38,054 nt of DNA from Candidatus Omnitrophota bacterium. GTDB taxonomy: Bacteria > Omnitrophota > Gorgyraeia > Zapsychrales > Fredricksoniimonadaceae. The notes under the pieces are model-generated. The model was not told the DNA's origin, did no database searches, and saw only the letters and a program-made list of their open reading frames with translations. Shown here one piece after another: positions 9,531 through 27,380 of the stretch. The number at the start of each line of letters is the position of its first letter. Position 1 is the first letter of the stretch. The translations under genes and the position numbers were made by a program. The stretch covers positions 1 through 38,054 of the forward strand of contig JADFWS010000003.1 of NCBI GenBank assembly GCA_015234065.1, read 5' to 3'.

Positions 9531-11018
9531 TTATCTGACCGCCTGGCCAAATGCCACGCGTGCTGTGTTCGCCTGCTGACCATTATCCATCATCTGATTA
9601 TTCTGAGCCGCCATCGGTGCGTTCATAACCTGATGACAATTCGTACACACACCCCTGTAGACATGCGGCATATTGGCATTGCTTGGAATTGGCGGAGCCA
9701 CAACAGCCGCGACCTGCTGGGCCGCGACCGGAAACGCATTCGCCTGCGTATTAACAGGCATAGCTACCGGAATACCGCCCTGACTGATCATCTGTTTACA
9801 ATTCGGGCATCTCGGATACCCATCATTCGGATCCAACCGGGCATAAAATCTCCAGTTGCACGTCGGACAAACAAACGCTTTCACCGGTGCCTGGCCTTGA
9901 TCAAAATTCGGCTGAACCGGCATCATCTGATTCATTTGCGGCTGCTGGAACTGCACCATGTTCGTCACCGGCTGTTCGATCACCGGGGCCGGCACATTGT
10001 TATTATTGGCCATTTCAAGAGCCATTTCTGCATCACAATTCGGGCATTTCGGAAATTTGTTCGCCTGCCGAACCGCTTTCATACGCCAATTGCAAACCGG
10101 GCAAATAAACCCCTGGGTCTGCTGTTGCTGCGCCGGCTGCACCTGCTGTGGCTGTACCTGCTGCGGTCCAAAACCAAACGCCACTTGCTGCCCTATGCCA
10201 TTCTGATTTCCCGGCAATGGGCACAACGGGCCGCCGTTCCAAGCCACGGGCATATTACCCTGATTAGCCGCTTGCTGCATCATCATACCATTGCCCTGCA
10301 TGCCCCCCTGTTGCATCATGGCCGGTTGCATCATCACACCCTGCTGCATCATGGCCGGGCGCATCATCATGCCGCCGCCTTGTCCCATCGGCATCGGGCA
10401 GTTCGGGCCCATGCCATTACCAAAAGCCACGGGAGCAGGCATCGCCTGACCCATATTCTGGTCTGGCATCTGTCCGGGCATGCCCGGCTGTGGCAGCGTA
10501 TTACTTGCTTGCGGTGTCGCCTGAATTCTGGCCTTGCGATACAACGTCACAACTTTCCTGGCCTGGCCCGTATAACCGCCAAATGCCCTAATACCAAACT
10601 GCATTAAAATGTTATAACTGTCCGGGTCAATGTTGCCAACAATGACCGCTTCTTCACCCTTACCCGCGATCAAATACACCAATTGCGGATTCGGCTGCGT
10701 GCCAAGATACGGATTCTTGATAGACTCAAGCATTTTCTTCGACAACGGATCAACAACCAGGAAATATTTAGCTTCGGGTAACGTAGCCGCCACATTCGCG
10801 TTCAAATTGGACCCGGTCGCGGCAATCACGATCTTCCCGCACGCCGGATTCCCGACATTCTGCGTCTGGCCTTCCGGTGAAAACAGCGCAAAGATCCCGA
10901 CCGCGAGCACCAGCAAAATCGCGCCAAAAATAAAATACGTGTTCAGGTCTGTTTCTTCGAGCCGCGATGAGAGATCGTCGATCGAAACATTCATTTTTTC
11001 TTTCGGATGCTTTACCAT
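9531..11018 (-). CDS. Membrane-anchored mosaic: NifB/NifX domain, Met/Gln-rich region, two CxxC ribbons, one magnetochrome
   Basis: KIVIAATGSNLNANVA...AKYFLVVD...AVIVGNID (NifX-like); CPVCNWR...CPNC and CPTCNWR...CPNC; PPIPSNANMPHVYRGVCTNCH. Confidence 0.8.
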   Translation of the reverse strand: MVKHPKEKMNVSIDDLSSRLEETDLNTYFIFGAILLVLAVGIFALFSPEGQTQNVGNPACGKIVIAATGSNLNANVAATLPEAKYFLVVDPLSKKMLESIKNPYLGTQPNPQLVYLIAGKGEEAVIVGNIDPDSYNILMQFGIRAFGGYTGQARKVVTLYRKARIQATPQASNTLPQPGMPGQMPDQNMGQAMPAPVAFGNGMGPNCPMPMGQGGGMMMRPAMMQQGVMMQPAMMQQGGMQGNGMMMQQAANQGNMPVAWNGGPLCPLPGNQNGIGQQVAFGFGPQQVQPQQVQPAQQQQTQGFICPVCNWRMKAVRQANKFPKCPNCDAEMALEMANNNNVPAPVIEQPVTNMVQFQQPQMNQMMPVQPNFDQGQAPVKAFVCPTCNWRFYARLDPNDGYPRCPNCKQMISQGGIPVAMPVNTQANAFPVAAQQVAAVVAPPIPSNANMPHVYRGVCTNCHQVMNAPMAAQNNQMMDNGQQANTARVAFGQAVR

Positions 11019-13965: not shown

Positions 13966-15024
13966 TCAGCTTTCGACGGGAAAAAATTGTTGAAATCGTT
14001 GAGCATTGAACGCTGCAGCAAAATCGGGACGTTTTAAAGATGCACTTTTATAAACAACAAGAGCATCCTTCTTCTGTTCCACAATAAAAACTTCAACATT
14101 TTTTAACAACCGCGCTGCATGAAGGCCCTGCCGGCCTCCTAAAATACACATGACCGTTGACAGAACATCCGCTTCTTCTGCCGTTCGTGCAATCACGGTC
14201 GCACTGATAGCCCCTGTCTCAGGATAACCTGTCATAGGATCAATAATATGCGAATATTTAACCCCATTGATCATTGAAAACTTTTCATAACTGCCAGATG
14301 TTGATATGCCCTGGTCTTTGATGAGCGCGGCCGCCAGTACTTTAGTCTTATCCAGCGGATCCTGAATGCCGATCATCCAGGGTTTTTGGCCATGATCCAA
14401 ACCACGGCAAAAAAGCTCCCCTCCCATATCCAGCAAAAAGTGCTTTATCTCATTGGCATCTAGCATCTTAGCTAATTCATCGCAGGCAAACCCAGAAACA
14501 ATGCCACCCAAATCTATTCCCATGCCTTGTTTCTTGAAAAACACGCGATCCGGCCCTTCCAAGCGAATATTTTGATACCCAACCATCGCTTGAGCGCCTT
14601 TAACAGCGTTTGAATCAGGGATACAACCCTGCTGACTTGCATTTTTCCACAATTTGATCAGCGGAAGACAGGTAATATCAAACGTGCCGCGGGTCATTTT
14701 AGCCAAACGCAACGCATTTTTCACCACGCGATAAACATCCGAGCTTACTTTTACCCCATGAAACCCATCCTGATTTAATTTGGCCAAGTCTCCGGAAGAC
14801 GAAAAAACATTCATGTGCTGATGCCATTGCTCTATCTTGGCCCAACACGACTGTGTAACAGCAGAAATATCAATGGCGGGGTCATGATAAAGACGTATTT
14901 CAACCATTGTACCGAAATACGGCCTGATTTCCTGATACTCCTTAAGATTTACAGGCAATTTTTTCTCGGAAGAAAAACTCATGCGGGTTTGAAGGCTGGA
15001 AAGGATTTTGGTTATCATGCGCAA
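13966..15024 (-). CDS. apbE: FAD:protein FMN transferase ApbE
   Basis: FGTMVEI, GTFDIT, IDLGGI, ISTSGSYEK, HIIDP, AD-x-LST motifs. Confidence 0.9.
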   Translation of the reverse strand: MRMITKILSSLQTRMSFSSEKKLPVNLKEYQEIRPYFGTMVEIRLYHDPAIDISAVTQSCWAKIEQWHQHMNVFSSSGDLAKLNQDGFHGVKVSSDVYRVVKNALRLAKMTRGTFDITCLPLIKLWKNASQQGCIPDSNAVKGAQAMVGYQNIRLEGPDRVFFKKQGMGIDLGGIVSGFACDELAKMLDANEIKHFLLDMGGELFCRGLDHGQKPWMIGIQDPLDKTKVLAAALIKDQGISTSGSYEKFSMINGVKYSHIIDPMTGYPETGAISATVIARTAEEADVLSTVMCILGGRQGLHAARLLKNVEVFIVEQKKDALVVYKSASLKRPDFAAAFNAQRFQQFFPVES

Positions 15025-15035
15025 CCGGAAACAGA

Positions 15036-15818
15036 TTAAACAAACCGGAGATACTTGCGGAAAAGGCCGGTCATAAAGATCGGCATTAAAAAGACCCCGA
15101 AAAACTCCTCGACTACCGTAATATACCCATTGATCCCCACAGGAACAATGTCTTTATAGCTGATATGGATGAGTGTCAGCGTGCTGTAATAGGTTGTTTC
15201 CAATAAACTGGGCTTTACAGTAACCCCGGCATTGATCATCTGGCCATGAGAGTACAGGTAGGAAAACGTCAAGATAAGAAATAACGCGAATAGAATGGTT
15301 CTCTGGGGCTTTTCGCCGTGTCCCCATATACAAAAGGAGAACGTCATGGTGATCCATGAAAAAACCATGCCCACTTGCTTTTTGAGGCCGTTATTCTGAT
15401 CAAAACCAAACGCGCCGCGCGGACGCAAAAAAGGAAATATATTTAAGGCAAGATGCTTGCGATAACACTCTTTGGAACGATAATAACACTCTGAAAATCC
15501 GGCGTCTTCAAGGTCCCGCTCATGCGATGTAGCCGCATATTTATACAGCATGCTGGCGTATTCAAGATCATACGCCAATTCAGCTTCTTTAGCGGCCTTC
15601 TCATAATTCAATGCCGCATAGTGAAAAAAGGTCTTGTCGCCAGCTTTCAGCGCCCAGCAACTAGCCGCTGATGAGAAACATAGCGCCGCACTTTGATGCT
15701 TGCCTTGACCCTGATGGATCCCGGCCGCTTGAACGAACAATTTTGACGCATCGCCGTAATGCTGTTCATCCAGAAGCCGATGCGCCTCTTTTTCAATCGC
15801 GGAAACATCGTTAGGCAT
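15036..15818 (-). CDS. Helical-repeat protein with a C-terminal K+-channel-like (two TM plus pore) domain and degenerate filter
   Basis: Ala-rich TPR/SNAP-like N-terminus; WGHGEKP, TM, YYSTLTLIHISYKDIVP, TM. Confidence 0.65.
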   Translation of the reverse strand: MPNDVSAIEKEAHRLLDEQHYGDASKLFVQAAGIHQGQGKHQSAALCFSSAASCWALKAGDKTFFHYAALNYEKAAKEAELAYDLEYASMLYKYAATSHERDLEDAGFSECYYRSKECYRKHLALNIFPFLRPRGAFGFDQNNGLKKQVGMVFSWITMTFSFCIWGHGEKPQRTILFALFLILTFSYLYSHGQMINAGVTVKPSLLETTYYSTLTLIHISYKDIVPVGINGYITVVEEFFGVFLMPIFMTGLFRKYLRFV

Positions 15819-15858
15819 ACATTAATTTCAGGTAAATGTTGAAAATGTTGAATTCGTT

Positions 15859-16188
15859 TTAACCCTTTAACGCCTGATCCATGGAATCGTGGATAGCGAC
15901 GATCTTATGCACTTTTGTGATCTCAAGAACGCCCCGGATATCCTTATTGACATTGCAAAGAGATAATTTCCCGTTCACCTTCCGAAGCTTTTGGACCAAC
16001 TCGATCAATGATGCGAGCCCGGAGCTATCCATAAAACTCACGGTTTCAAAATCCAATATCACTTTATTGATTTTTTCGCTGACGATCGGCATGAATACAT
16101 CACGCAGCTGTGCTACATTGTCGGCGTTGATCTCGCCATTCAGCATCAAGATCAGAAAATCATTGTTACGTGTGACTTTTATGTCCAT
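15859..16188 (-). CDS. STAS anti-sigma-factor antagonist (RsbV/SpoIIAA-like)
   Basis: VILDFETVSFMDSSGL phosphoserine motif. Confidence 0.85.
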   Translation of the reverse strand: MDIKVTRNNDFLILMLNGEINADNVAQLRDVFMPIVSEKINKVILDFETVSFMDSSGLASLIELVQKLRKVNGKLSLCNVNKDIRGVLEITKVHKIVAIHDSMDQALKG

Positions 16189-16203
16189 CAAGCCCTCCCT
16201 GCC

Positions 16204-16629
16204 TCAGAAGTTCTTTGTCATCCTGATCGTACGGCCATGATCTTCAAATTCCACATGATCCATCGCATTTTGTATCAAAAAGATGCCCCGTCCGCTCATC
16301 TTTTCCAAGTTTTCAGGCAAAATCGGATTGGGGATGCTTGTATAATCAAAGCCCGGCCCCTGATCTGTGACCTCAATAGTCAACTGCCGCTCTTGAGCCT
16401 GAATATCAACCTTAACAACAAGCGCGGCGTTTAATTTATTGCCATGCTTCATGGCATTGATCACTGCTTCCTGAAGCGCCAGTTTAATATCAAAAGACGC
16501 CTTCTGTTCAAACGGCAGGAAACACAATTTTCCCATGACCGCTGCTATAAAAGCCGGAACAAGGCCTATCCTGGACTGAAGCGTTTCTGAAATATGCAAC
16601 GGAATACCTGACATGAAGCACATGGCCAT
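16204..16629 (-). CDS. RsbW-like anti-sigma factor / Ser kinase
   Basis: LALQEAVINAMKHGN, DQGPGFD and SGRGIFLI HATPase motifs. Confidence 0.85.
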   Translation of the reverse strand: MAMCFMSGIPLHISETLQSRIGLVPAFIAAVMGKLCFLPFEQKASFDIKLALQEAVINAMKHGNKLNAALVVKVDIQAQERQLTIEVTDQGPGFDYTSIPNPILPENLEKMSGRGIFLIQNAMDHVEFEDHGRTIRMTKNF

Positions 16630-16779: not shown

Positions 16780-16932
16780 TTAATGGCAGTTTCCTTTAGA
16801 CTTCGCGCCACACGACCCTTTATCTCCACTGCAACTGGAACATCCGTCACCCTGCTTGAGCGCTTTTTTCATATACCCGGCCAATGCTGCGATCGCGGCC
16901 CCGAATATAGCAAATACGACAAGAATTTCCAT
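16780..16932 (-). CDS. FeoB-associated Cys-rich membrane peptide (50 aa, absent from the ORF track)
   Basis: Manual translation MEILVVFAIFGAAIAALAGYMKKALKQGDGCSSCSGDKGSCGAKSKGNCH: TM, basic patch, GCxxC..C..CH. AAGGGA RBS. Confidence 0.7.
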   Translation of the reverse strand: MEILVVFAIFGAAIAALAGYMKKALKQGDGCSSCSGDKGSCGAKSKGNCH

Positions 16933-17048
16933 AATATTCCCTTCTTGATAATGTCTAAAACGTAAATATTAAACACGAGCGAACCTTATGTCCGCCCGCA
17001 ATAATCTAACATATTAGTCTATGCGACAGGGGAAACCATACGAAAATA

Positions 17049-17951
17049 TTACGCAGGGTCAATAAAGAAATCAATGTCACTTATTAACGGGAGATCCCGA
17101 AAAAGCGCCTGCTTCATGGCATCTGTAAACACGGCAGTATCTGCAATCGTTCCTTTGGAAGAACCGCGCAGGCTAATACCAACCCAGAATTTTTTCCCAA
17201 CCCTTTTAAATTTAATATGTTCCGGCCAGAAATCCGGGCGAATACGCGTAATAACATTACGGATATGCAGAATAAAGCCCGCATCCGGGGCCTGGTCCAG
17301 AATATTCTGTACGCTCATGACCCAATGCTTTAACGCGTCTTTAATGATCGCAACCCCGACGACAAGCGCCGCCAGCCTGTCGCATACGGCAAAATCCGGG
17401 CCAAACTGGGACAAAATAATGCCGCCAATGACCGCACTCGAAGAAATAACATCTGCCCCGGCATGTGCCCCGTTCGCGATCAGCGCCGGACTCTCCAATC
17501 TGCGACCGGCACAAAAATTATAGCGCTGCATCATATATGTCAGAAAAACAGATGTCATGGCCACCGGCAATACCATGATATCTGGCTGAACAAAATCACG
17601 CCGAAGAATAGCCAGAAGGCTGGACAGGGAAATAAATGCCCCCACTCCGATAAGAACGCTAAACGCAATAAGCGTCACCAGAAATTCAAGCCGGGCATAT
17701 CCATACGGGAACCGTGCATCCTGCGGACGGTTAGAGAATGAAAGCGTCACCATGATGGCAATGCTTGTTACCACACACACAATGGACTGAATGCCATCCG
17801 CCAGCATACCGGAACTGTTCGCAAGAACACCCCCCGCAAGCTTGATCACGACGAGAATGGCATTTCCTACAACAGTCCATGCCAGAACCTTTTTAGAACA
17901 CGCCACGCAAGCTTCTGCACTGGGACATGATTGAGCACGTGCTTTTGTCAT
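17049..17951 (-). CDS. Second MamB-like CDF transporter
   Basis: CVAC at the N-terminus, FPYGYARLEF, RYNFCAGRRLESPALIANG, matching mamB GYGFCAGRKLNSPAMIANA. Confidence 0.8.
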   Translation of the reverse strand: MTKARAQSCPSAEACVACSKKVLAWTVVGNAILVVIKLAGGVLANSSGMLADGIQSIVCVVTSIAIMVTLSFSNRPQDARFPYGYARLEFLVTLIAFSVLIGVGAFISLSSLLAILRRDFVQPDIMVLPVAMTSVFLTYMMQRYNFCAGRRLESPALIANGAHAGADVISSSAVIGGIILSQFGPDFAVCDRLAALVVGVAIIKDALKHWVMSVQNILDQAPDAGFILHIRNVITRIRPDFWPEHIKFKRVGKKFWVGISLRGSSKGTIADTAVFTDAMKQALFRDLPLISDIDFFIDPA

Positions 17952-18844
17952 TGTTCGACCATGGGTTTCATCCCCACAAAAATCTCATGGGGTTTTAAAA
18001 ACTTTATTCTTAACGCTTCTTTGATCCTTGCAATAATCTTCTTGGCTTCTGATACCGGCATATCCTTGATCACCGTCAGAATGAGCACAATCTCATACAC
18101 ATGCCCCACTTTGTTCACGCGCAACGCTTCAAGTTCTGCGCCCCGTCCTGCCTGACGCACATGCCGTTCAACAGTACTGATGATCTCCTTATCGCACGAT
18201 GCATCCATAAGCCCGTTAAATGCTCTGTATAGAAACCACACACTGTACGCCACAATAAACACTGCCGCAAAGATCGCGCATGCATAATCAAGGATATACG
18301 CCCCCATCCTTGCCACCACCACCACGACCGCGGTCACGACTGAGAGGATAAAATTTGTTTCAAGGATGAACATGATGTCATGCGCATCTGTCTCACGAAC
18401 AGCAGCAACCTTATTACCAACGATCCCCATAAAAACAAGACTGACGACTGCCGTGCCAAGCGCGATCCATGCCCCCAGAAGTTCCGGCGGATACAGCGTA
18501 TGGAAAAAAACCATGTGACCGGTTGAAAAGATCATCTCCCCTGTAGCCAGCGCAATGATTGCCGATACGCCAAAGAGAACCATGTATTCAAGCTTTCCCT
18601 GGGTAAAAAGCATTTCCCGGCGCCCTGGCCGCACCGACGGATGCGCAACCGCGATCCGCATCAATGTCGCCACTGCGATCAAAATACCGAACAGGGCAAA
18701 AATACCGGCGACGAGCAGGCTTTTCGATGCACTCATAACGCCAAAAACAGTTTTAACAATAAAATCCAACATAAAGAAATAAAGAAGCGCGTACGCAAAA
18801 CGCTCTTTGTTTTCTTTAGCAATATCCAACTTGAATTTCTTCAT
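17948..18844 (-). CDS. Divergent CDF (MamM/MamB-like) lacking canonical metal ligands
   Basis: GKLEY, FNGLMDAS and LRVNKVG CDF landmarks; overlaps the next CDF by 4 nt. Start set at MKKFK. Confidence 0.7.
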   Translation of the reverse strand: MKKFKLDIAKENKERFAYALLYFFMLDFIVKTVFGVMSASKSLLVAGIFALFGILIAVATLMRIAVAHPSVRPGRREMLFTQGKLEYMVLFGVSAIIALATGEMIFSTGHMVFFHTLYPPELLGAWIALGTAVVSLVFMGIVGNKVAAVRETDAHDIMFILETNFILSVVTAVVVVVARMGAYILDYACAIFAAVFIVAYSVWFLYRAFNGLMDASCDKEIISTVERHVRQAGRGAELEALRVNKVGHVYEIVLILTVIKDMPVSEAKKIIARIKEALRIKFLKPHEIFVGMKPMVEQ

Positions 18845-18846
18845 TC

Positions 18847-19671
18847 TTACTTTGCCCCTGTTGTAAGCCCCTGGATCAAATGGCAATTAGAACAGACACC
18901 CCGATAGTTATGCGGCATCTGCGCCGTGATCGGAATAGCGATATCAGGATTAACAACATGACAGCGCTCACATACACCCCGATACTCATGCGGCATGACC
19001 GCATCACGAAATATCATCGGCGCGCCATTGGCTTGCCCTGCCATCGGCTGCGTAAAAGCCACGTTTTGAATGCCCGCTCCCTGCGCCTGACTGTTCATGG
19101 TAATATTCGCACCGCAACGAGGGCAGCGTGAAAATCCGTTTGCACCGGCATTTTGATCAATATAGGAATGATTACAGCGCGGACAGCGAATCCCACTATA
19201 AACCGGCCGCTGAAACGCGACCTGTTGTACGCCAACCGCACAACCGGGCCTGAACGCTACTTGTTGAGCCCCATTAATACCTTGAGGAAAGCATTGGGCA
19301 ACGCTTGGACATGTCGCGCAATTCGGATTTGTTAAAGCCACCTGCTGGGCTGATCCTGCGGCCCCTGGGAAACAATTCGTTACCGTCGGGCACGTAGCGC
19401 AGCCTGGTGGCACATAAGCTGCCTGCAAAGCTCCGCCCAGAACAACAGTTTCCTGCCCGGGCTGAAATGCCACCTGCTGGGCCCCCTGAACCATAACGCC
19501 ATGAACTTGATCCGGCATCGGAATCGGCTTCTTTGCACTACTAAAAACTGCAACGCAAAAGAACGTGGCCAGCCCAAGAATGATAGTTCCAATGATCCAT
19601 AAACTCTTGGAGCTCAAGTTCACACACGACCCGTATTCCCACGCCTCATTTTTCTTTTTTTCACTGCTCAT
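18847..19671 (-). CDS. Two-magnetochrome (MamT-like) protein with Cys-rich repeats
   Basis: TM; two CATCP-x-V-x2-CFP repeats; CPRC...CPRC; MPHEYRGVCERCH and MPHNYRGVCSNCH. Confidence 0.8.
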   Translation of the reverse strand: MSSEKKKNEAWEYGSCVNLSSKSLWIIGTIILGLATFFCVAVFSSAKKPIPMPDQVHGVMVQGAQQVAFQPGQETVVLGGALQAAYVPPGCATCPTVTNCFPGAAGSAQQVALTNPNCATCPSVAQCFPQGINGAQQVAFRPGCAVGVQQVAFQRPVYSGIRCPRCNHSYIDQNAGANGFSRCPRCGANITMNSQAQGAGIQNVAFTQPMAGQANGAPMIFRDAVMPHEYRGVCERCHVVNPDIAIPITAQMPHNYRGVCSNCHLIQGLTTGAK

Positions 19672-19683
19672 AATAATGCCCTT

Positions 19684-20112
19684 TCATGGCCTTGTTCCTA
19701 CAACAATATAAACCGAAACCGGCTGCCCCTGTCGGTCGACTGTGAGCGCAACCTTCTGATTTTCCTGCGCCGCCTGAATCAAGCCCTGCAACTCATCCGA
19801 ACTTGTAATACTGACCCCGTTCCAACGTCGGATCACATCTCCGACCTGAATACCCGCCACCTGCGCCGGAGAGTCAATGAACGTTCGCGCCACAAGAACA
19901 CCGCTCGAAGACGGAACGCTGAATTGCCGCTGAACATCCGAGGTCAGATCAATCGTCTCGGCCCCGATCCACACCTTTGTTTTCATAGCGTTAAAGTACA
20001 TGGGGATCAATTTCAAATAAATGATAAAGACCGCGGACATAAACAACAGGACCAGAACAACAATCCCCCGCCCTTTATATGCTGAACTCGCGCGTTGCAC
20101 AGGTTTAAACAT
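19684..20112 (-). CDS. Membrane-anchored PDZ protein
   Basis: TM, then VWIGAE...SGVLV...DSPAQVAGIQVGDVIRRWNG. Confidence 0.8.
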   Translation of the reverse strand: MFKPVQRASSAYKGRGIVVLVLLFMSAVFIIYLKLIPMYFNAMKTKVWIGAETIDLTSDVQRQFSVPSSSGVLVARTFIDSPAQVAGIQVGDVIRRWNGVSITSSDELQGLIQAAQENQKVALTVDRQGQPVSVYIVVGTRP

Positions 20113-20968
20113 CTTTAGGCCTATCTTTAAAAGCTTCCTTTATCGGATCTCCCGGCCCTATCTGAACACGAACATTCTCACACTTCAAACACTTGAAACA
20201 TCGGACACAGGTTGCTGCGCCGGTGTTATCACTGATATTGATATCCACCGGGCAAACGTCCCGGCACTTTTGGCAGTCTTTACAACCATGCGTATCCACC
20301 TTCAACTGAAGGATACTGTACTTGTTAAAAAATCCGAATATTGCACCGAGCGGGCAGGCTAATGTACAAAACGGCCTTTTTGCCACCATAAAAAGTCCGA
20401 TGAACGCAAACGCGATCAAAATTTTAATAATAAACAGTAGTCCCAACGTCTGCGTTGATACCGCAGGCTCTCCGTACACCGGAATAATCGGATTCCATGT
20501 CACCCACGGGATCGCGGCCTGAAATGTCCCCATGGGACACACTTTAGAAAACCATGTTTCCTGGGTGATCAGCGGGAATAAAACAACCAAAAAGAACAAT
20601 ATGAAATATCTCAAATTTGACAACTTTTCAGGAATCCGGATCTTAATGCTTTTGACCTTATACAACAGGTCCTGAAGAAGCCCGAACGGACACACCCACC
20701 CGCAAGCAAGGCTGCCCACCAGAATACCGATCGTCGCAAGATACGCTGTCACCATGTACGGAAACTTCCGGATGGTCATAAAATGCTGGACCGTACCGAT
20801 TGGGCATGAAAAGAATGCCGACGGACAACTGTGGCAATTCAAAACCGGCACGCAAATACTTTTAAGGTCGCCCTGATACACCTGCTTTGTCTTAAAGAAT
20901 CCCACATACGCGTTCATCAAAAGCGCCGAACACCACTGAACCGTAAGTCGTATGCCTTGAAGATCCAT
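20105..20968 (-). CDS. NapH/MauN-type membrane 4Fe-4S binding protein
   Basis: NCHSCP..CPIG, CGWVCPFG, CPMG, RPFCTLACPLG, CKDCQKCRDVCP, CVRCFKC. Confidence 0.85.
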   Translation of the reverse strand: MDLQGIRLTVQWCSALLMNAYVGFFKTKQVYQGDLKSICVPVLNCHSCPSAFFSCPIGTVQHFMTIRKFPYMVTAYLATIGILVGSLACGWVCPFGLLQDLLYKVKSIKIRIPEKLSNLRYFILFFLVVLFPLITQETWFSKVCPMGTFQAAIPWVTWNPIIPVYGEPAVSTQTLGLLFIIKILIAFAFIGLFMVAKRPFCTLACPLGAIFGFFNKYSILQLKVDTHGCKDCQKCRDVCPVDINISDNTGAATCVRCFKCLKCENVRVQIGPGDPIKEAFKDRPKDV

Positions 20969-20971
20969 TCC

Positions 20972-21106
20972 CTACTCCAGTCCTATACACGCCATGCACA
21001 TGGTGGCGCCATTATTCTGTATTTCCAACGGCTCATTATTCGTATCGCCGATCAGAAAGAAAACAAACGTCAAAAAGAAGACACCTGTAACTGCTATTTT
21101 TTTCAT
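20972..21106 (-). CDS. CD1871A-type CxxC peptide (44 aa, absent from the ORF track)
   Basis: Manual translation MKKIAVTGVFFLTFVFFLIGDTNNEPLEIQNNGATMCMACIGLE ends in CxxCIG, typical of peptides encoded beside this 4Fe-4S family. Confidence 0.7.
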   Translation of the reverse strand: MKKIAVTGVFFLTFVFFLIGDTNNEPLEIQNNGATMCMACIGLE

Positions 21107-21125
21107 TATGTACTCCGGACACTCT

Positions 21126-21482
21126 TTACTGCGTTTCTATCCAGGTCATTGGCCTCCCACAATGCGGGCACAACGGAAATCCACCTTTGCCGCACGCAGG
21201 ACAAACAAAAATTCCTCTGTATCCGTTCCAAAACATCGCGACTTTACATGTCGGGCATAACGGGATCCCCTTGGTGCCGCATATAGGACACACGCTATAG
21301 ACATTATGCGCAATAACTTTCATGACCACATTGCCTGCAATAAGTGAACGCACCTGAAGGGTTTTATATTTCCCGACAGAATACGCACCGTACCCGGCCA
21401 CGAACACCATGAAGATCACGCCCATAATCAACAGCCTGATCCGGTCCTGTTCGTGAATGTTCGTTTGGTCGTTAATACTCAC
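21126..21482 (-). CDS. Membrane-anchored protein with four CPxC motifs (double zinc/rubredoxin-like ribbon)
   Basis: CPIC, CPTC, CPAC and CPHC in two internally repeated units after a TM. Confidence 0.75.
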   Translation of the reverse strand: MSINDQTNIHEQDRIRLLIMGVIFMVFVAGYGAYSVGKYKTLQVRSLIAGNVVMKVIAHNVYSVCPICGTKGIPLCPTCKVAMFWNGYRGIFVCPACGKGGFPLCPHCGRPMTWIETQ

Positions 21483-22183
21483 AGCACCTTTACCTTTGGT
21501 TTCACGCCGCCCGCCGGAGCCGGCGCTGTCACCGCCGTTACTTCATGCATGGCCCCGCCGCATTTGGGGCATTTGTCCGGGATCACCTTGCCGGCGCTCT
21601 TTTCCGAAATGCGATACTGGCAATCGAAACAAATATAATATTTGCCCTGAACGACCCGTCCGAGGTTGGCCTGCGTATCAAAAGAATTGCAGGCCACGGC
21701 CTTTTTGCTTCCCGTAATACCAAAATGCGCCGGAACATTCTCCGCGGTCAGTTTGGTCAGCGCATCCGGATAATCCTGAAGCGCCTGCCAGGCCGTCCCG
21801 TGAATGTCCGTATACACATCAATACGTGCCTGATCAAAAATACGGAAAGGCTCAAAGCCGACATTGTTCCCCAAGACCACATCCACGCCAAGATCAACCA
21901 ACATTTGCGCCGAGCGCAATCCCGCGGCATGCTGAGCATCCATATATTTATTTGGAACAGCTTTCCATGTTCTTCTGGCACGGTCGCAAATGATATAGTA
22001 CGGCGCGCGCCCAAAAAGATAGGAAACAGGGCTCGTAATATCTTGCCCAGTCGCGGCAATAGCCACCAGAACAGCCTTTCTTCCGCTTAAAACAAGCGGA
22101 TTATCCATTTCATACCATGCACGGCCGGCTACAAGGCCAAGTGCGCACAAAAGAACCAGTAGAAAGGCTGATCTCTTCTTCAT
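21479..22183 (-). CDS. Signal/TM-bearing NifB/NifX-family protein with a C-terminal CxxC ribbon
   Basis: VAIAATGQDITSPVSYLFGRAPYYII...GVDVVLGNNVG; CFDC...CPKC. Confidence 0.85.
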   Translation of the reverse strand: MKKRSAFLLVLLCALGLVAGRAWYEMDNPLVLSGRKAVLVAIAATGQDITSPVSYLFGRAPYYIICDRARRTWKAVPNKYMDAQHAAGLRSAQMLVDLGVDVVLGNNVGFEPFRIFDQARIDVYTDIHGTAWQALQDYPDALTKLTAENVPAHFGITGSKKAVACNSFDTQANLGRVVQGKYYICFDCQYRISEKSAGKVIPDKCPKCGGAMHEVTAVTAPAPAGGVKPKVKVL

Positions 22184-22641
22184 TTCCTGGGACGCCTCTG
22201 TTTCACGTCACCAGAGTCAATAACTTCTGTATTCCCGTGCTCAAAATGTATCTTTTTGTAATACTCACAAGAAAGGCAGGATGTCTTGCAGAATATCTTC
22301 TGATGCGCCACATGCTCGCGCAGGGCATAACACTTTTTGGTGTCCGAGAGAAAAACCACGCACAGCTTGCAATTATGAACGCCATTCATCTTCGGCGTCT
22401 GATGATACTCCCAGCACCTGAGAAAATCCGATTGCGATATGAGTTTTTCCGATTTAAACGCATCGATCCCGATCTTGTAGGTCTTGATAAATGCGATAAG
22501 GTCCGCCCGATGGATCCGGCGATGCCCTCCAGGCGTTTTTGTGCTTTTAAGGATCCCCTGCTTGGCCCAATTAATGACTGAAAATCTTGTGACACTACAA
22601 AGTTTGGCCGCATCCACGGTCGAATAATATTCCTTCATCAT
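22180..22641 (-). CDS. Excisionase-type HTH regulator with a Cys-rich C-terminal domain
   Basis: YYSTVDAAKLCSVTRFSVINWAKQG...TPGGHRRI; CWEYH..CKLC..CY..CKTSCLSCEYY. GGAGG RBS before ATG 22641. Confidence 0.8.
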   Translation of the reverse strand: MMKEYYSTVDAAKLCSVTRFSVINWAKQGILKSTKTPGGHRRIHRADLIAFIKTYKIGIDAFKSEKLISQSDFLRCWEYHQTPKMNGVHNCKLCVVFLSDTKKCYALREHVAHQKIFCKTSCLSCEYYKKIHFEHGNTEVIDSGDVKQRRPRK

Positions 22642-22659: not shown

Positions 22660-22687
22660 TCAACATATTATACTAATTCAACATATT
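22660..22687. promoter_or_regulatory. Direct repeat TCAACATATT x2, candidate operator
   Basis: Identical 10-mers at 22660-22669 and 22678-22687, just upstream of the HTH gene. Confidence 0.35.
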
Positions 22688-22795
22688 CTACATTGTAGGC
22701 CAAAAAAAATCAGTCCCCGTCGGAACTTTAATTCTTGAAGCCACGCGATCCGTGGTCATCAATTGTTTTGGATTCTAACAAAATGCACAGCAAAG

Positions 22796-23170
22796 TCAAA
22801 TATTTTTATTTGCCTGCCGCTCACATATTCCATCAACATGCGTTGCGACCATCTCAACACATCCGACGCAAGGCAGTTTCTTCAACGCGCGGATCTCCCG
22901 GCATTGGATGGATCCGGCACGGGCCAACAGCGCCGCCGCGCAATCCTTCGCCGCCTGCGAATGATTCTTTTCCAATATCACCTGGGCCGCATACAAAGAA
23001 CCGCATACGCCACCTGGAGCCCGCCCGCCTCCACACGCAACAAAGCGCGACAGGTCTTCCGCAGACAATTTGAATTTATCCTGGAAAGCATACGCGATCG
23101 CCTCTGCGCAGTTAGACTTTTTAAACCCTGAAGTTCCTGAATAGTGTGCTTTTGCTTTTTCAACTGACAT
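22796..23170 (-). CDS. C-GCAxxG-C-C family putative redox protein
   Basis: NCAEAI, GGGRAPGGVCGSL, IQCREIR, PCVGCV. Confidence 0.8.
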   Translation of the reverse strand: MSVEKAKAHYSGTSGFKKSNCAEAIAYAFQDKFKLSAEDLSRFVACGGGRAPGGVCGSLYAAQVILEKNHSQAAKDCAAALLARAGSIQCREIRALKKLPCVGCVEMVATHVDGICERQANKNI

Positions 23171-23308: not shown

Positions 23309-23734
23309 CTAAAATTGTTTTAGCCAACCTTCGATCTTTTGCCTGATCTCCTCACGAACAGCCCTGGTCTTGGCAAGCTTCTCTTCAAAAGCCCCCTCGA
23401 ACTTCGACGGGTCTGTGAAGCCCCAATGAAGCCTCTTGGCCACGCCCGGAAATACCGGACAGCGCTCAGCACTTGTTTCATCGCACACCGTGACTACATA
23501 GTTATACAACTTGCGCTGTTTCAAAAGATCAAAAACCGCCTGCGTTTTCTTCCCGGTAATATCAACCCCGATCTCCTTCAAGGCCTCAATAACAACTGGA
23601 TTCAACTTGCCCGGCTCGATCCCGGCACTTTCTACCTCAAACCTATCCCCGCCCAGCTTGCGCAAAATCTCTTCTGCCATCTGGCTTCTTGCTGAATTGT
23701 GAATACACACAAACAACACCTTTACCTTGCCCAT
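23309..23734 (-). CDS. arsC: Arsenate reductase (LMW-PTP fold)
   Basis: VLFVCIHNSARSQMAE, VTVCD, CPVFPG, HWGFTDP. Confidence 0.9.
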   Translation of the reverse strand: MGKVKVLFVCIHNSARSQMAEEILRKLGGDRFEVESAGIEPGKLNPVVIEALKEIGVDITGKKTQAVFDLLKQRKLYNYVVTVCDETSAERCPVFPGVAKRLHWGFTDPSKFEGAFEEKLAKTRAVREEIRQKIEGWLKQF

Positions 23735-23743
23735 CACAACCCC

Positions 23744-24712
23744 CTAGCTAGTTAGAACAATTTGAAGAAAATTAAACGCATATCCAATAGCGATAATTCC
23801 CGCCGTTACGACCCCGAAATAAATAAGGATCAAATGGAGATTCATTGCCCGTCTCAGCATGATAGCCTCGGGCAAACTTAACCCGGTGACCGCCATCATA
23901 AAAGCCAAGGCAGTCCCCAGCGGTATCCCTTTTTGAAATAAAACCAATGCAACGGGCACGATTGCGGCACAACTACCATACATCGGAACACCTAAAAGAG
24001 TCGCTATTGGCACCGAAAAGATCCCCGTGCCGGAAATCAGCGCATGGATCTGTTCTTGAGGGAGATAATTGTGTATGAAAGACCCTAAAGCAACGCCCAC
24101 CAAAATCCATAACCAGATCTTCTGAACGATCGAGGACGCCTCATTCAGACCAAAAACAATTCTATCTTTGAAGGACGAGATCTGTGGTTCATTGGAGGAA
24201 AGCTCTTCGTTTCCACTGGCAACCATATCAACAACAAGATGCCGCTCCAGCTTCATCCTCCCAATAACAAGCCCTGACACAATGGCTAACAGCAATCCGC
24301 TCAATACATACAGAACAGTTATTTTCCAGCCGAACAGCCCTATCATGATGATAACCAGGTATTCGTTGATCAGAGGAGATGCCACTAGAAAAGTAAGCGC
24401 CGCGCTCAACGATATGCCCGCCTTAAGAAAACTTAAAAACATCGGGATCGATGAACAGGAACAGAACGGCGTGATAGCACCGAACAAAGCCGCGTAGACA
24501 TTTCCCATCAGCCCGTTATTAGCCATCCACTTCTTGACCGACCGCTGCGGAATAAATGTCCTTAATACTCCGATAACCAGGATCATCACATAGAGCAAGA
24601 ATAATATCTTTATTGAATCGTAAATAAAGAAATCCAATGCTGCTGCCAGCGTCGATGATCTTGGCAGATCCAAGACTTGATAAACAAACCAATCAGAGAA
24701 ATTTAACAGCAC
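23744..24712 (-). CDS. DUF318 / ArsP-type permease
   Basis: [34 protein letters not shown] start with GGAGG RBS. Confidence 0.85.
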
Positions 24713-25761
24713 TTGCCCTCCTTCTTAATGTCGACCAACCAAACGCTGCTTTTCAAATACAACGCCACATTGACCAACCCGATCATGACCGGCACCTCGA
24801 CCAAAGGCCCGATGACCGCGGCGAAAGCCACGCCAGAATTGATACCAAAGACAGCAATCGCAACGGCAATAGCCAACTCAAAATTGTTGCTTGCCGCCGT
24901 GAACGAAAGCGTCACGGTCTTGCCATGATCAGCCCCCGCCTTCCCGCTCATGAAGAAGGAGAGAAAAAACATGACCACAAAATAAATCAGGAGCGGAATC
25001 GCGATCCGAAGAACATCCCACGGGATCTTTACGATGTACTCCCCCTTAAGCGAGAACATCACAAAGATCGTGAACAGAAGGGCGATCAGCGTCATGGGGC
25101 TGATGCGAGGAATGAACACCTTCTCATACCATTCCTTGCCCCTCAGCCGAAGCAGGGCAAACCTGGAGATCATTCCAGCCAAGAACGGAATACCCAGATA
25201 AATGAATACACTTTTGGCGATCTGCATGATCGTGACATTAACAATCACGCCTTTAAGACCAAACCAGCCAGGAAGGATCGTAATAAAGACCCACGCGTAC
25301 ACCGAGAAGAACAGCACCTGAAAAATGGCGTTAAACGCCACCAACCCGGCGCAATACTCGGTATCCCCATCAGCCAGGTCGTTCCAGACAATGACCATGG
25401 CAATGCACCGCGCCAAGCCGATCATGATAAGACCGACCATGTATTCCGGATAGCCTCGCAAAAAGACGATCGCCAGGGCAAACATCAATATTGGGCCAAT
25501 AATCCAGTTCTGAACCAGCGACAGCGCCAGGATCTTGTAATCCTTAAACACATCCCCCAATTCCTCATACTTCACCTTCGCCAAAGGTGGATACATCATG
25601 AGGATCAATCCAATAGCGATCGGTACATTGGTTGTCCCTGATTGAAACTGATTCCAGAATCCCATAACTCCCGGAATAAAGTACCCGACGCCAACGCCAA
25701 GCGCCATCGCCAGGAATATCCATGCCGTCAAATACTGATCCAGGAATGCCAGCTTCTTCAT
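24703..25761 (-). CDS. acr3: Arsenite efflux transporter Acr3
   Basis: [39 protein letters not shown]. Confidence 0.95.
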
Positions 25762-26066
25762 CCCTTCTCCTCGGGCGTCTTAATACTGCAACATCCACCT
25801 TCAATCTTGATAGCCTTGATGTTAACCAGCCCGTCAGCCACTTTCTTATGGGCAGAAGATAATATCCTGGTAAATGTCGGGCGCGACACCTTCATCAGTT
25901 TCCCCGCCTGCGCGTGGGTCAAATCTTCAAGATCCGCCAACCGAATGGCCTCGAACTCATCAATGGTCACGGCCACGCCCTCCAGCACGCCCGGTTTCTT
26001 ACACTTGGGACGAAAGCATCTCTCCCCCGGCAGGCACTTGATCCATCTGGTCTTTTTTGGTCTCAT
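25758..26066 (-). CDS. DUF134 domain HTH protein
   Basis: [41 protein letters not shown]...IKIEGG. Confidence 0.9.
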
Positions 26067-26225: not shown

Positions 26226-27380
26226 TTACCACGGAGTGATCCATCGGCCCTGATTACGGCCAAAGCCGGTATACACATGCGCAATGAGCGCCATTCTAAG
26301 ATGCCCGTCCTGAAAAGCGGCGAACGTCTGCTCGACCGTGGCGGGACGATCAATATAGTAAACTCGAACGCCCACAGACCTGAGCGCCGCATACATCTCG
26401 GGATCCATCTGTGCCGCCAGGACTGTGCCGACATTATTCTGACGCACCAGCGCGGTCAGCATCTGGATCGTGTTCCCGTTAAAGAACTGGCTGTTATTCA
26501 TAAACACAACCGTCTTGTTCTGTGTCATATCCGCGACAAAATAATACGGGGCCCGGCCGAACATATTCTCAACCGGGCTCTGGGCGAACTGCCCCTGCGC
26601 CGGAATCAGGACGACCTTTCTCTTATTCAGCGTATCGTGGGCATCATGGGCGAACAAAAGGACGATCAACACGGTCAACACATACAAAGCCGTCGCAACC
26701 CGCCGCTTGATCGCCACTTCATTCGGGATCTGCTCCGCAAAAGCTTCCTTAAACAGTACAAACGCGCCCCGGAATTGGAAACAGGCGATCAAAACAGCAC
26801 CCAGAGGATCGCAATATACCAATCCCGCTTCGGCGAGCGTCAGCCCAACCAGCGCCACGATCGTCGAATAGAAATTCGCCTTGTTCTGCACCATGCAGAT
26901 ATAAATACTGCTGTTGTCCGGCTTTTGCTTGAGCGCACTGACAGAAACCCGATACAAATGTGTCGTGGCTAAAAAAGAAACGAGCGCAACAAAAAGCGAC
27001 AGGATCCCAGGATGCCCCGGCAAATGCACAAAAAGGATCGCCACATTATCCGAAAGGATCCAAACGCCCGACAGGAACATCACGATCCCGATCAGAATCC
27101 CCTGCCAGAACGGCGAAAGCCTGAGGCGGCGGACACCCTGATAATTGATCCCGAACGCAACACAATCCGCGAACGAATTCACAGCATCAGCAACGAGGAT
27201 CTTACTTCCGGTCAAAAGCCCGACAAAACCTTTGACGATCGTCGCGATAATATAATAAATGAGCGAGCCGAACACAACGCGCGAATGGCAATTGCGGCAC
27301 TTGGGATTGATCTTGCCCTTGAACAGAAGTTGATTACAGGTACAGGCTTTATCTTTAGGATGGTGTTCCGCGAGCGGCAT
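26226..27380 (-). CDS. MamB-like CDF membrane domain fused via an extra TM to a NifB/NifX domain
   Basis: CRNC, KGFVGLLTGSKILVADAVNSFAD, YCDPLGA; a further TM; then SPVENMFGRAPYYFVAD. Confidence 0.8.
   Translation of the reverse strand: MPLAEHHPKDKACTCNQLLFKGKINPKCRNCHSRVVFGSLIYYIIATIVKGFVGLLTGSKILVADAVNSFADCVAFGINYQGVRRLRLSPFWQGILIGIVMFLSGVWILSDNVAILFVHLPGHPGILSLFVALVSFLATTHLYRVSVSALKQKPDNSSIYICMVQNKANFYSTIVALVGLTLAEAGLVYCDPLGAVLIACFQFRGAFVLFKEAFAEQIPNEVAIKRRVATALYVLTVLIVLLFAHDAHDTLNKRKVVLIPAQGQFAQSPVENMFGRAPYYFVADMTQNKTVVFMNNSQFFNGNTIQMLTALVRQNNVGTVLAAQMDPEMYAALRSVGVRVYYIDRPATVEQTFAAFQDGHLRMALIAHVYTGFGRNQGRWITPW

Follow-up and report, generated by a model that had tools for sequence, protein, structure and literature searches.

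What does a second run of magnetosome-like genes do beside a complete core magnetosome operon? The question was raised by a stretch of 38,054 nucleotides (the window), which is the whole of contig JADFWS010000003.1 (C110 in our numbering) of the Candidatus Omnitrophota assembly GCA_015234065.1, a metagenome-assembled genome (MAG) of 1.75 Mb in 176 contigs that is 85.7% complete. Nearly every gene of the window lies on the minus strand, and nine of them, closely packed from 22641 to 17049, constitute the run in question. It was concluded that these genes form a real, conserved and magnetosome-restricted accessory cassette, which probably serves, as a movable unit, to control the redox state and to deliver iron in the magnetosome.

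The cassette encodes, in order, a helix-turn-helix (HTH) regulator, a protein joining a NifX domain to a CxxC ribbon, a protein with four CPxC motifs (4xCPxC), a CxxC peptide, a Mad6-type polyferredoxin, a PDZ protein, a protein with two magnetochrome motifs and two members of the CDF family, named here CDFa and CDFb (Table 1). This tight run, as well as the domains and all ten open reading frames (ORFs) listed in the preliminary description, was confirmed. Adjacent genes overlap by 4 nt at the HTH/NifX, NifX/4xCPxC and CDFa/CDFb junctions and by 8 nt at the Mad6/PDZ junction; the gaps at the other junctions measure 3 to 19 nt, and none from HTH through CDFb is wider. The likely ATG start of the HTH gene lies at 22641 or 22638. 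For CDFa, the ATG at 18844 agrees with the starts of its relatives and puts the gene 2 nt past the stop of the magnetochrome gene. The tenth ORF, a FeoB-associated-like peptide, is separated from CDFb by a 116-nt gap containing a terminator-like hairpin. It scored below the Pfam cut-off, and no copy was seen 3' of the cassette in relatives; no feoB lies beside it, the sole full FeoB_N match of the genome being on contig C37. Its place as a conserved member of the unit, as first proposed, was not borne out, and membership of the cassette is doubtful.

The regulator was 66-83% identical in four other loci, its C-terminal half keeping seven invariant cysteines in the alignment, and matched only HTH_17 clusters in the protein atlas. 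The NifX domain scored 55.6 bits, above the gathering score of 26.3 (PF02579), and had the relatives 1rdu, 1eo1 and 2wfb in the PDB; the same protein gave a match to the NCBIfam rubrerythrin-like domain (E 4.4e-5) and was 69-77% identical across four genomes. No nif genes were seen among the window genes, the rest of the genome not having been searched for nif. The 4xCPxC protein was 59-64% identical in four genomes and was assigned to no family by the NCBIfam search or the protein atlas (nothing above 0.78). Six of its eight ribbon cysteines were invariant; the fourth and the fifth were the exceptions, in one relative each (L029 and L019, respectively). The PDZ protein was 41-46% identical across four genomes. 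The magnetochrome model (PF18509) was matched in two stretches, with the motifs CERCH and CSNCH, at 43.3 bits against a cut-off of 30.4, and this part of the protein was conserved in five loci. Overall, the nine cassette proteins were conserved at 36-83% identity.

Magnetochrome matches were sought in 401 Omnitrophota genomes and 14 control genomes. Such matches were recorded in 8 of the 401, seven of them above the cut-off, and in none of the controls. CDFa orthologs (46-52% identity) were present in four of the Omnitrophota genomes, namely G219, G327, G368 and the genome under study (G000), the next best match reaching at most 26%; the polyferredoxin, at E<=1e-30, was confined to the same four. 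All four were magnetochrome-positive. The preliminary description had named wide occurrence of the operon in genomes without core mam genes as a refutation of its reading, and for these two markers no such occurrence was seen among the 401. By tblastn of the window proteins on fetched regions, the cassette gene order was found to be kept in G219, G368 and contig C16 of G327; locus L029 of an Omnitrophota MAG keeps it as well. Because the order from HTH to CDFb is kept in other genomes, the run is not a chance pattern. In G219, G368 and G327:C16 the cassette lay directly downstream of the last PDZ gene of the core operon. In the window it stands upstream of a block of four genes (RsbW, STAS, a 260-aa protein and ApbE) and the core operon, and L029 carries the full cassette, with the core genes of its genome on a different contig. 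Since the position relative to the core differs among genomes, the cassette moves as a unit. Megablast of the 6-kb stretch against a plasmid collection gave no match.

Table 1. Features of the cassette, its flanks and the core operon in the window.
Feature	Position	Strand	Evidence or remark
HTH_17/excisionase-type regulator, Cys/His-rich C-terminal half	22180..22641 (ORF to 22653)	-	Pfam HTH_17, E 3e-10
Membrane-anchored NifX-like domain and rubredoxin-like CxxC..CxxC ribbon	21479..22183	-	Pfam Nitro_FeMo-Co (PF02579), E 6.9e-15
Membrane-anchored protein with four CPxC motifs (double ribbon)	21126..21482	-	Weak double-zinc-ribbon Pfam matches
44-aa membrane peptide, C-terminal CxxCIGLE	20972..21106	-	Ends MCMACIGLE; no Pfam family
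Mad6-type NapH-like membrane polyferredoxin, 287 aa	20105..20968	-	Pfam Fer4_5, E 1.5e-16
Membrane-anchored PDZ protein (FmpA/MamE-C-terminal type)	19684..20112	-	Pfam PDZ_2, E 5e-11
Membrane-anchored protein with CxxC-rich repeats, CPRC..CPRC ribbon and two magnetochrome haem motifs	18847..19671	-	Pfam MCR
CDFa, divergent CDF	17948..18886 (likely ATG 18844)	-	Cation_efflux 28.4 bits and ZT_dimer 25.4 bits (weak)
CDFb, MamB-like CDF	17049..17951	-	Pfam Cation_efflux, E 3e-34
Terminator-like hairpin after CDFb	16974..17000	-	Hairpin prediction
FeoB-associated-like Cys-rich peptide	16780..16932	-	Pfam FeoB_associated (PF12669) 20.8 bits, cut-off 27
Three tandem 9-bp repeats, consensus ATGTWGAAT	22668..22693	-	Conserved upstream of HTH gene
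Terminator-like hairpin with T-run	22712..22727	-	Closes upstream C_GCAxxG gene ahead of cassette; T-run conserved
Core magnetosome operon	~13937 to 365	-	Pfam/NCBIfam

Several genes were observed to accompany the cassette in its relatives. A PAS-domain protein of about 308 aa lies directly 3' of the second CDF gene in three of them (L017 9544-10464, L021 17300-18226 and L029 13880-14815); the window lacks it, and a search of this genome, 85.7% complete as it is, did not reveal it. An AIR-synthase-type (SelD-like) protein with a Cys-rich N-terminus is encoded a few genes downstream of the cassette at L029 (15535-17154, with a C-terminal CMD domain) and L019 (1-1045), and a second Mad6-like paralog, 42-46% identical, was present in two cassette-bearing relatives (G219:C23:15809-16594 and G368:C42:3870-4655). 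G327 (L021, L023 and L024; contigs C11 and C16) has the core operon twice, at 64-69% identity to that of the window, and one copy is accompanied by the full cassette. The other, on C11, is followed only by the cassette HTH and a short two-magnetochrome protein. The two copies could represent a duplication or a mixed bin.

The operon had been described at the outset as separately regulated, and of this claim the part visible in the DNA itself stood, namely an HTH paralog of its own and a repeat upstream of it in five of five loci, regulation as such being a prediction. When the 220 nt upstream of the HTH gene were aligned for these loci, a block was conserved in all five, in which a T-run is followed by three tandem copies of ATGTWGAAT. 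The repeat pattern matches the window at 22668-22684 and 22677-22693. Its exact 16-mer form, TGTWGAATAWGTWGAW, was found in only 4 of 146 fetched loci (L019, L021, L024 and L029), always just upstream of the cassette HTH gene, and L021 of G327 holds a further copy before the NifX gene. The element was not seen before the core HTH gene, which has a promoter-like site of its own at 13937-13909. It is probably an operator or promoter of the cassette; a reading as a sigma-70 promoter was rejected, as no properly spaced pair of hexamers could be placed by eye. A one-mismatch copy, ATGTTGAAAATGTTGAA, was also observed at 15836-15852 on the plus strand, between the STAS and 260-aa genes and opposite to their direction.

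The polyferredoxin gave a Fer4_5 match of 60.5 bits together with Fer4-type matches, and 16 of its cysteines were invariant across 15 aligned homologs. Its top NCBIfam model was NapH/MauN, at 58.8 bits and below the cut-off of 213, and it was 45% identical over 100% of its length to the named Mad6 of Ca. Desulfarcum epimagneticum. A clade of 22 rows (SH-aLRT 98) united the window protein with the named Mad6 and all 13 cluster-linked rows, and the Omnitrophota copies adjoined proteins of Fibrobacteria and Planctomycetes MAGs in the tree. A sequence search of the PDB with Mad6 returned no match.

Loci of the Mad6 family were retrieved by a Mad6 alignment scan, and the counts of loci given here and below are counts among the matches listed. 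In 59 of 85 loci the Fer4_5 gene is immediately preceded by a gene for a small membrane peptide ending in CxxCIG(I/L)(E/G): four of four among the Omnitrophota relatives, 55 of 73 where no mam genes are present and none of eight at Desulfobacterota-type mad6 genes. In the cassette the C-terminus of this peptide, NGA[TS]MCMACIGLE, was invariant in five genomes. Four of four such peptides from other phyla scored 32.5-67.4 with NCBIfam NF040920 (CD1871A family CXXC motif-containing protein; cut-off 32). The window peptide aligns with those of the CD1871A family at invariant G, C, C, I and G and has their layout, with an N-terminal membrane segment, a C-terminal CxxCIG and a place directly upstream of a Fer4_5 gene. 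Judged by these features, it is a divergent CD1871A-type partner of the polyferredoxin. A complex prediction for the two proteins scored 0.18 against a mark of 0.32 and counts neither for nor against their association. In 29 of the 73 non-magnetotactic loci a further conserved protein was encoded upstream on the same strand; the five sampled were AhpC-TSA/Redoxin proteins, one of which scored best to ResA/TlpA. This arrangement of a TlpA/ResA-like redoxin, a CD1871A-type peptide and a Fer4_5 polyferredoxin recurred at L040-L108 in Bacillota, Actinomycetota, Zixibacteria and other phyla, and the literature search turned up no paper on CD1871A or on the three-gene module. The function of the triad is itself deduced from its genes. 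By analogy with it, the polyferredoxin and peptide of the cassette would deliver reducing equivalents to the outer side of their membrane.

The two CDFs were then placed within their family. CDFb was ranked by NCBIfam as MamB (NF033616, 155.3 bits), followed by MamM (147) and FieF (76). It stays below the MamB cut-off of 350, and since the core MamB (255 bits) fails too, the model is evidently too narrow for this phylum. CDFa was ranked as MamM (NF033615, 73.3 bits), followed by MamB (64) and FieF (54); none of these scores, for either protein, reached its cut-off (350 for MamM). Close homologs of CDFb fell into about 30 clusters at 42-68% identity, the six named clusters all belonging to Candidatus Omnitrophica, and the more distant kin found by an exhaustive profile-free search included one protein of a Fibrobacteria MAG, whose contig equals in length the contig that carries a Mad6-like protein. 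In a careful IQ-TREE analysis of 76 rows, the Omnitrophota CDFb clade was supported at 100/100, its union with six outside representatives at 100/98 and with a three-row sister at 100/97; the clade, the sister and P0172 joined the Omnitrophota core MamB clade at 97/81. The ordinary CDFs, including three from non-magnetotactic Desulfobacteraceae, formed a separate clade (100/99) and the MamM-type proteins another. The possibility raised earlier, that the CDFs would group with ordinary FieF, was therefore not realized for CDFb, which is of the MamB type.

The transport site of CDFb, read from a HMMER alignment to E. coli FieF (2qfi), consists of Q55, C59, H163 and D167, the corresponding site A of YiiP being D45-D49-H153-D157 (text of PMC6465983). 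The Q/E-x3-C pattern in transmembrane helix 2 (TM2) is common to the CDFb clade and its sister. CDFb also retains C15xxC18 and C147 (FCAG), which align with the cysteines of MamB and MamM (Cys9/Cys138 type), whereas ordinary CDFs have neither. The N-terminal CxxC and loop cysteines are described as important in MamB in the text of PMC3905215, and the mamB allele C9Y of strain RS-1, reported in the text of PMC4287615, is evidence that this cysteine matters. The TM2 segment of CDFa, LLVAGIFALFGILIAV, contains no liganding residue, and I and N occupy its TM5 positions; neither the N-terminal CxxC nor a Y-D-H-D site is present. CDFa is thus probably a non-transporting partner of CDFb. Three observations suggest that the two may form a heteromer in which one subunit works and the other has a dead site: their translational coupling, a natural 601-aa fusion (P0165) whose halves match CDFa (33%) and CDFb (35%), and the precedent of MamM, which interacts with MamB and stabilises it (text of PMC3905215).

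The sidedness of the anchored proteins was estimated as well. The products with the NifX domain and ribbon, the PDZ domain and the magnetochrome motifs, and the peptide, each have one hydrophobic segment, at the N-terminus. Lysine and arginine are commoner before than after this segment in the NifX, PDZ and peptide products, but not in the magnetochrome protein. A further guide was the core NifX-magnetochrome protein of 495 aa (9531-11018, minus strand), which resembles a fusion of the cassette NifX-ribbon and two-magnetochrome proteins: its NifX residues 63-183 are 23% and its C-terminal residues 376-472 are 31% identical to the cassette counterparts. With only one hydrophobic segment, at the N-terminus, this protein should have its NifX and haem domains on the same side of the membrane, and because c-type haem domains mature outside the cytoplasm, its NifX domain should be lumenal. 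By homology, the cassette NifX domain would be lumenal too, which is a crude estimate. The charge pattern of the 4xCPxC protein is reversed and weakly suggests that its ribbons are cytoplasmic.

We propose that the cassette, with its own regulator and upstream element, supplies electrons and iron to the magnetosome. The Mad6-type polyferredoxin, through cytoplasmic [4Fe-4S] clusters and membrane CxxxCP motifs, would move reducing equivalents across the membrane together with the CxxC peptide. The electrons would be accepted by the lumen-facing, anchored, Cys- or haem-rich NifX-ribbon, PDZ and two-magnetochrome proteins, which would set the Fe(II)/Fe(III) balance, magnetosome-type proteins thus taking the place that the redoxin has in the triad. 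CDFb, a MamB-derived paralog with an altered Q-C-H-D site, and the site-less CDFa would act as a heterodimer, like MamM/MamB. Topology, electron path, heterodimer, transported metal and regulation are all predictions of this scheme. The earlier suggestion that the operon tunes the redox state fits the gene content, and it fits the phenotypes of the RS-1 homologs: mutants of mad6, fmpA (PDZ) and fmpB (magnetochrome, PDZ and NifX) form fewer particles (text of PMC4287615).

Several points weigh against the scheme. The function of the cassette is deduced from the genes of an uncultured host; iron as the metal of the Q-C-H-D site is likewise a deduction. G219 yielded no HTH gene, which means that the unit can do without its regulator. 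In G388 and G241 the core cluster is present and the syntenic site is empty, with neither CDFa nor Mad6, so the cassette is dispensable. The Mad6 family is broad, with no mam gene within 10 kb in 73 of 80 genome loci and mam genes within that distance in the other seven. Two rows of the Mad6 clade itself (L032 and L037) have no mam neighbours, and the Mad6 tree was a quick one without bootstraps. The 44-aa peptide of the window gave no match to NF040920 at E<=1, and the topology was derived from a crude hydropathy scan and lysine/arginine counts.

A bolder form of the proposal was regarded as tentative and rather unlikely. In it, the polyferredoxin and peptide would be a DsbD/CcdA-like device taken from a clostridial-type triad, and together with the Cys-bearing MamB paralog, its dead-site partner and lumenal NifX/rubredoxin-like iron holders would make a self-contained transposable feed of electrons and iron. 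In the Omnitrophota that carry it, this feed could determine the chemistry of the crystals, a sulfide-leaning or more reduced mineral being one possible outcome.

One alternative, judged improbable, is that of a redundant paralogous copy, which would have arisen when part of the core operon was duplicated and would have no role of its own. The core operon begins with HTH_17, trypsin with PDZ (MamE), PDZ, NifX with magnetochrome, a 92-aa protein, PDZ with magnetochrome (MamP) and a 90-aa protein, and continues with two CDFs whose top NCBIfam models are MamM (250.6 bits) and MamB, then TPR (MamA), LemA (MamQ), a PDZ-CitMHS protein (MamN-like), TauE and a further PDZ protein. The HTH, PDZ, magnetochrome and CDF pair are common to both units, and in this respect the cassette parallels part of the core operon, as had been proposed. 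Indeed, all cassette domains but Mad6, the peptide and the 4xCPxC protein have a core paralog, at 23-44% identity: 44% for the HTH domain, 34% for PDZ (to that of core MamE), 31% for magnetochrome (the C-terminal 120 aa of the cassette protein against the C-terminus of the core NifX-magnetochrome protein), 23% for NifX and 30% for CDFb against MamB. The large clade nearest to CDFb is likewise core MamB. These paralogs, however, are old, and the cassette genes are nevertheless kept over family, order and class at 41-83% identity. The CDF sites differ systematically, by the Q/E-x3-C of the CDFb clade and its sister and by the loss of the site in CDFa, and neither Mad6 nor its peptide has a counterpart in the core operon.

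Doubtful to a like degree was the reading of the cassette as a remnant or reduced set of the second (Fe3S4, greigite) type, which would bias the mineral. Sets of the Fe3O4 and Fe3S4 types occur together in two Omnitrophota bins according to the text of PMC7602337. A second-type mam set was also seen in three Desulfobacteraceae genomes (G423, G456 and G489; L140-L143), in the order PDZ, MamE, divergent CDF, MamA, MamB*, PDZ, two or three NifX and MamE; about 20 kb separate it from the ordinary mam set in G423. Like the cassette, it joins a divergent CDF, a MamB-like CDF, PDZ and NifX. Its divergent CDF (branch 1.45) grouped with CDFa (branch 2.6) at 100/92, and there is a cysteine in the CDFb transport site. 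The CDFa join, however, unites two long branches with no special likeness by BLAST, and kinship was not accepted on this basis. In the best tree CDFb was placed beside the core MamB of the Omnitrophota, not with second-type MamB; a constraint uniting the CDFb group with second-type MamB was not rejected (delta lnL 16.5, p-AU 0.087), the reference being only presumed to be of the Fe3S4 type, since the greigite label of that set was taken from the literature only. A protein search with Desulfamplus MamB gave 120 matches listed, all at least 58% identical, with no separately labelled Fe3S4-type sequence among them, and a metagenome scan with P0183 matched ordinary MamB genes in other clusters. 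Published Fe3S4 sets are defined by MamA, MamB, MamM and MamQ clades in the text of PMC7602337, whereas Pfam detected in the cassette neither TPR (MamA) nor LemA (MamQ) genes, in agreement with the preliminary description, nor a MamE of its own. The link to mineral type or greigite that the same description had drawn was left unsupported.

A general metal-efflux or thiol-redox operon (Zn, Cd or Fe detoxification) that merely lies near magnetosome genes would suit the arsenic-type genes (LMWPc, ArsP and SBF) and the third CDF just upstream, the wide occurrence of the polyferredoxin/CxxC peptide/redoxin triad in non-magnetotactic anaerobes and the fact that CDFs commonly export Zn or Cd, yet it was held to be highly improbable, as the cassette encodes magnetochrome, a domain of 8 in 401 Omnitrophota genomes and 0 in 14 controls, its markers were never found without magnetochrome among the 401, three genomes have it adjoining the core operon, and CDFb has the MamB/MamM-specific cysteines that ordinary CDFs do not.

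The remaining neighbours of the cassette were recorded separately. The block at 13966-16629 on the minus strand encodes an RsbW-like kinase, a STAS protein, the 260-aa protein (weak ion-channel match) and ApbE. In G219 the core HTH gene has all four genes on its upstream side, in G241 the first three, and in G368, G327 and G388 ApbE alone; a partner-switching control and a flavinylation step for the core operon are possible functions. Just upstream of the cassette, an arsenic-type run at 23309-26066 (minus strand) comprises an LMW phosphatase/ArsC-like protein, an ArsP permease, an SBF/Acr3-like carrier and a DUF134 HTH protein, and a C_GCAxxG_C_C protein (22796-23170) sits between this run and the cassette. 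The SBF gene recurs with 79% identity beside the G368 cluster, and the C_GCAxxG gene near the G327 cassette. The third CDF, at 26226-27380 on the minus strand, is fused to an extra membrane segment and a NifX-like domain (Pfam Cation_efflux and Nitro_FeMo-Co). NCBIfam ranks it best as MamB (68.5 bits). Over residues 224-318 it shares 36% identity with the N-terminal anchor and NifX domain of the cassette NifX protein, and of the 401 genomes only this one gave a match at E<=1e-25. Such a fusion hints that CDFs and anchored NifX domains may cooperate.

Outside the Alphaproteobacteria, knowledge of how magnetosomes form comes almost entirely from lists of genes. The cassette shows some Omnitrophota to package Mad6, NifX, PDZ and magnetochrome with a second, chemically different CDF pair in a movable unit that has its own regulator. 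The link to the CD1871A/redoxin triad provides Mad6, which has a phenotype in RS-1 and no known mechanism, with a testable one, transmembrane electron transfer. Transport biochemistry gains a defined target in the Q-C-H-D site, its partner with a dead site and the fusion found in nature, and the presence or absence of the cassette among close relatives is a natural experiment on crystal number, shape or mineral.

In the running text of the literature searched, no account was found of the cassette as a unit, its control element, the CD1871A link, the CDF site changes or the fusion; the cassette may already be drawn in published cluster maps. Parts of it resemble several known systems. NapH of the NapGH quinol dehydrogenase has, like the polyferredoxin, a Fer4_5 domain and two C-terminal [4Fe-4S] motifs, but the polyferredoxin falls far short of the NapH cut-off, and no NapG, NapA or NapB is encoded nearby. 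The CD1871A triad shares the N-in membrane peptide with its CxxCIG(I/L)(E/G) end immediately upstream of a Fer4_5 gene; its partner is a redoxin, in contrast to the magnetosome-type lumenal proteins of the cassette, whose peptide escapes the family model. The genomes with double Fe3O4 and Fe3S4 sets, Ca. Desulfamplus BW-1 and the two Omnitrophota bins, also possess a second mam-like set, but their Fe3S4-type sets have MamA, MamB, MamM and MamQ of their own (text of PMC7602337), and the cassette is without A and Q.

The MamM/MamB pair of Magnetospirillum is, like the cassette pair, encoded by two adjacent CDF genes, M-like and then B-like (text of PMC3905215). The sites differ, being H-D-D-D in MamB and Y-D-H-D in MamM according to the same text, as against Q-C-H-D in CDFb and none in CDFa. 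CDFb has no Pfam ZT_dimer match, and both cassette CDFs, together with the core copies, are far below the equivalog cut-offs of NCBIfam for MamM and MamB.

Mad genes occur in 11 phyla (Lin et al. 2020, text of PMC7602337). The mad6-fmpA-fmpB-mamB/mamM region of Desulfobacterota, as described for Desulfovibrio magneticus RS-1 by Rahn-Lee et al. 2015 (text of PMC4287615), shares with the cassette the NapH-like Mad6, a protein with PDZ only, NifX and magnetochrome domains and a CDF pair of the MamM/MamB type, and in Desulfamplus and other MAG loci MamB, NifX, PDZ, MamE, MamE, Mad6 and MamM stand in one operon. In Desulfobacterota these blocks are thus parts of a single core operon with the core MamB/MamM, whereas the core operon of the window has no Mad6. 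The cassette, in contrast, is a separate unit with its own HTH regulator, CDF pair, 4xCPxC protein and CxxC peptide, the peptide being present in the window and all four Omnitrophota relatives and in none of the eight Desulfobacterota-type mad6 loci among the matches listed. NifX, PDZ and magnetochrome, which are separate proteins in the cassette, are fused in FmpB (text of PMC4287615).

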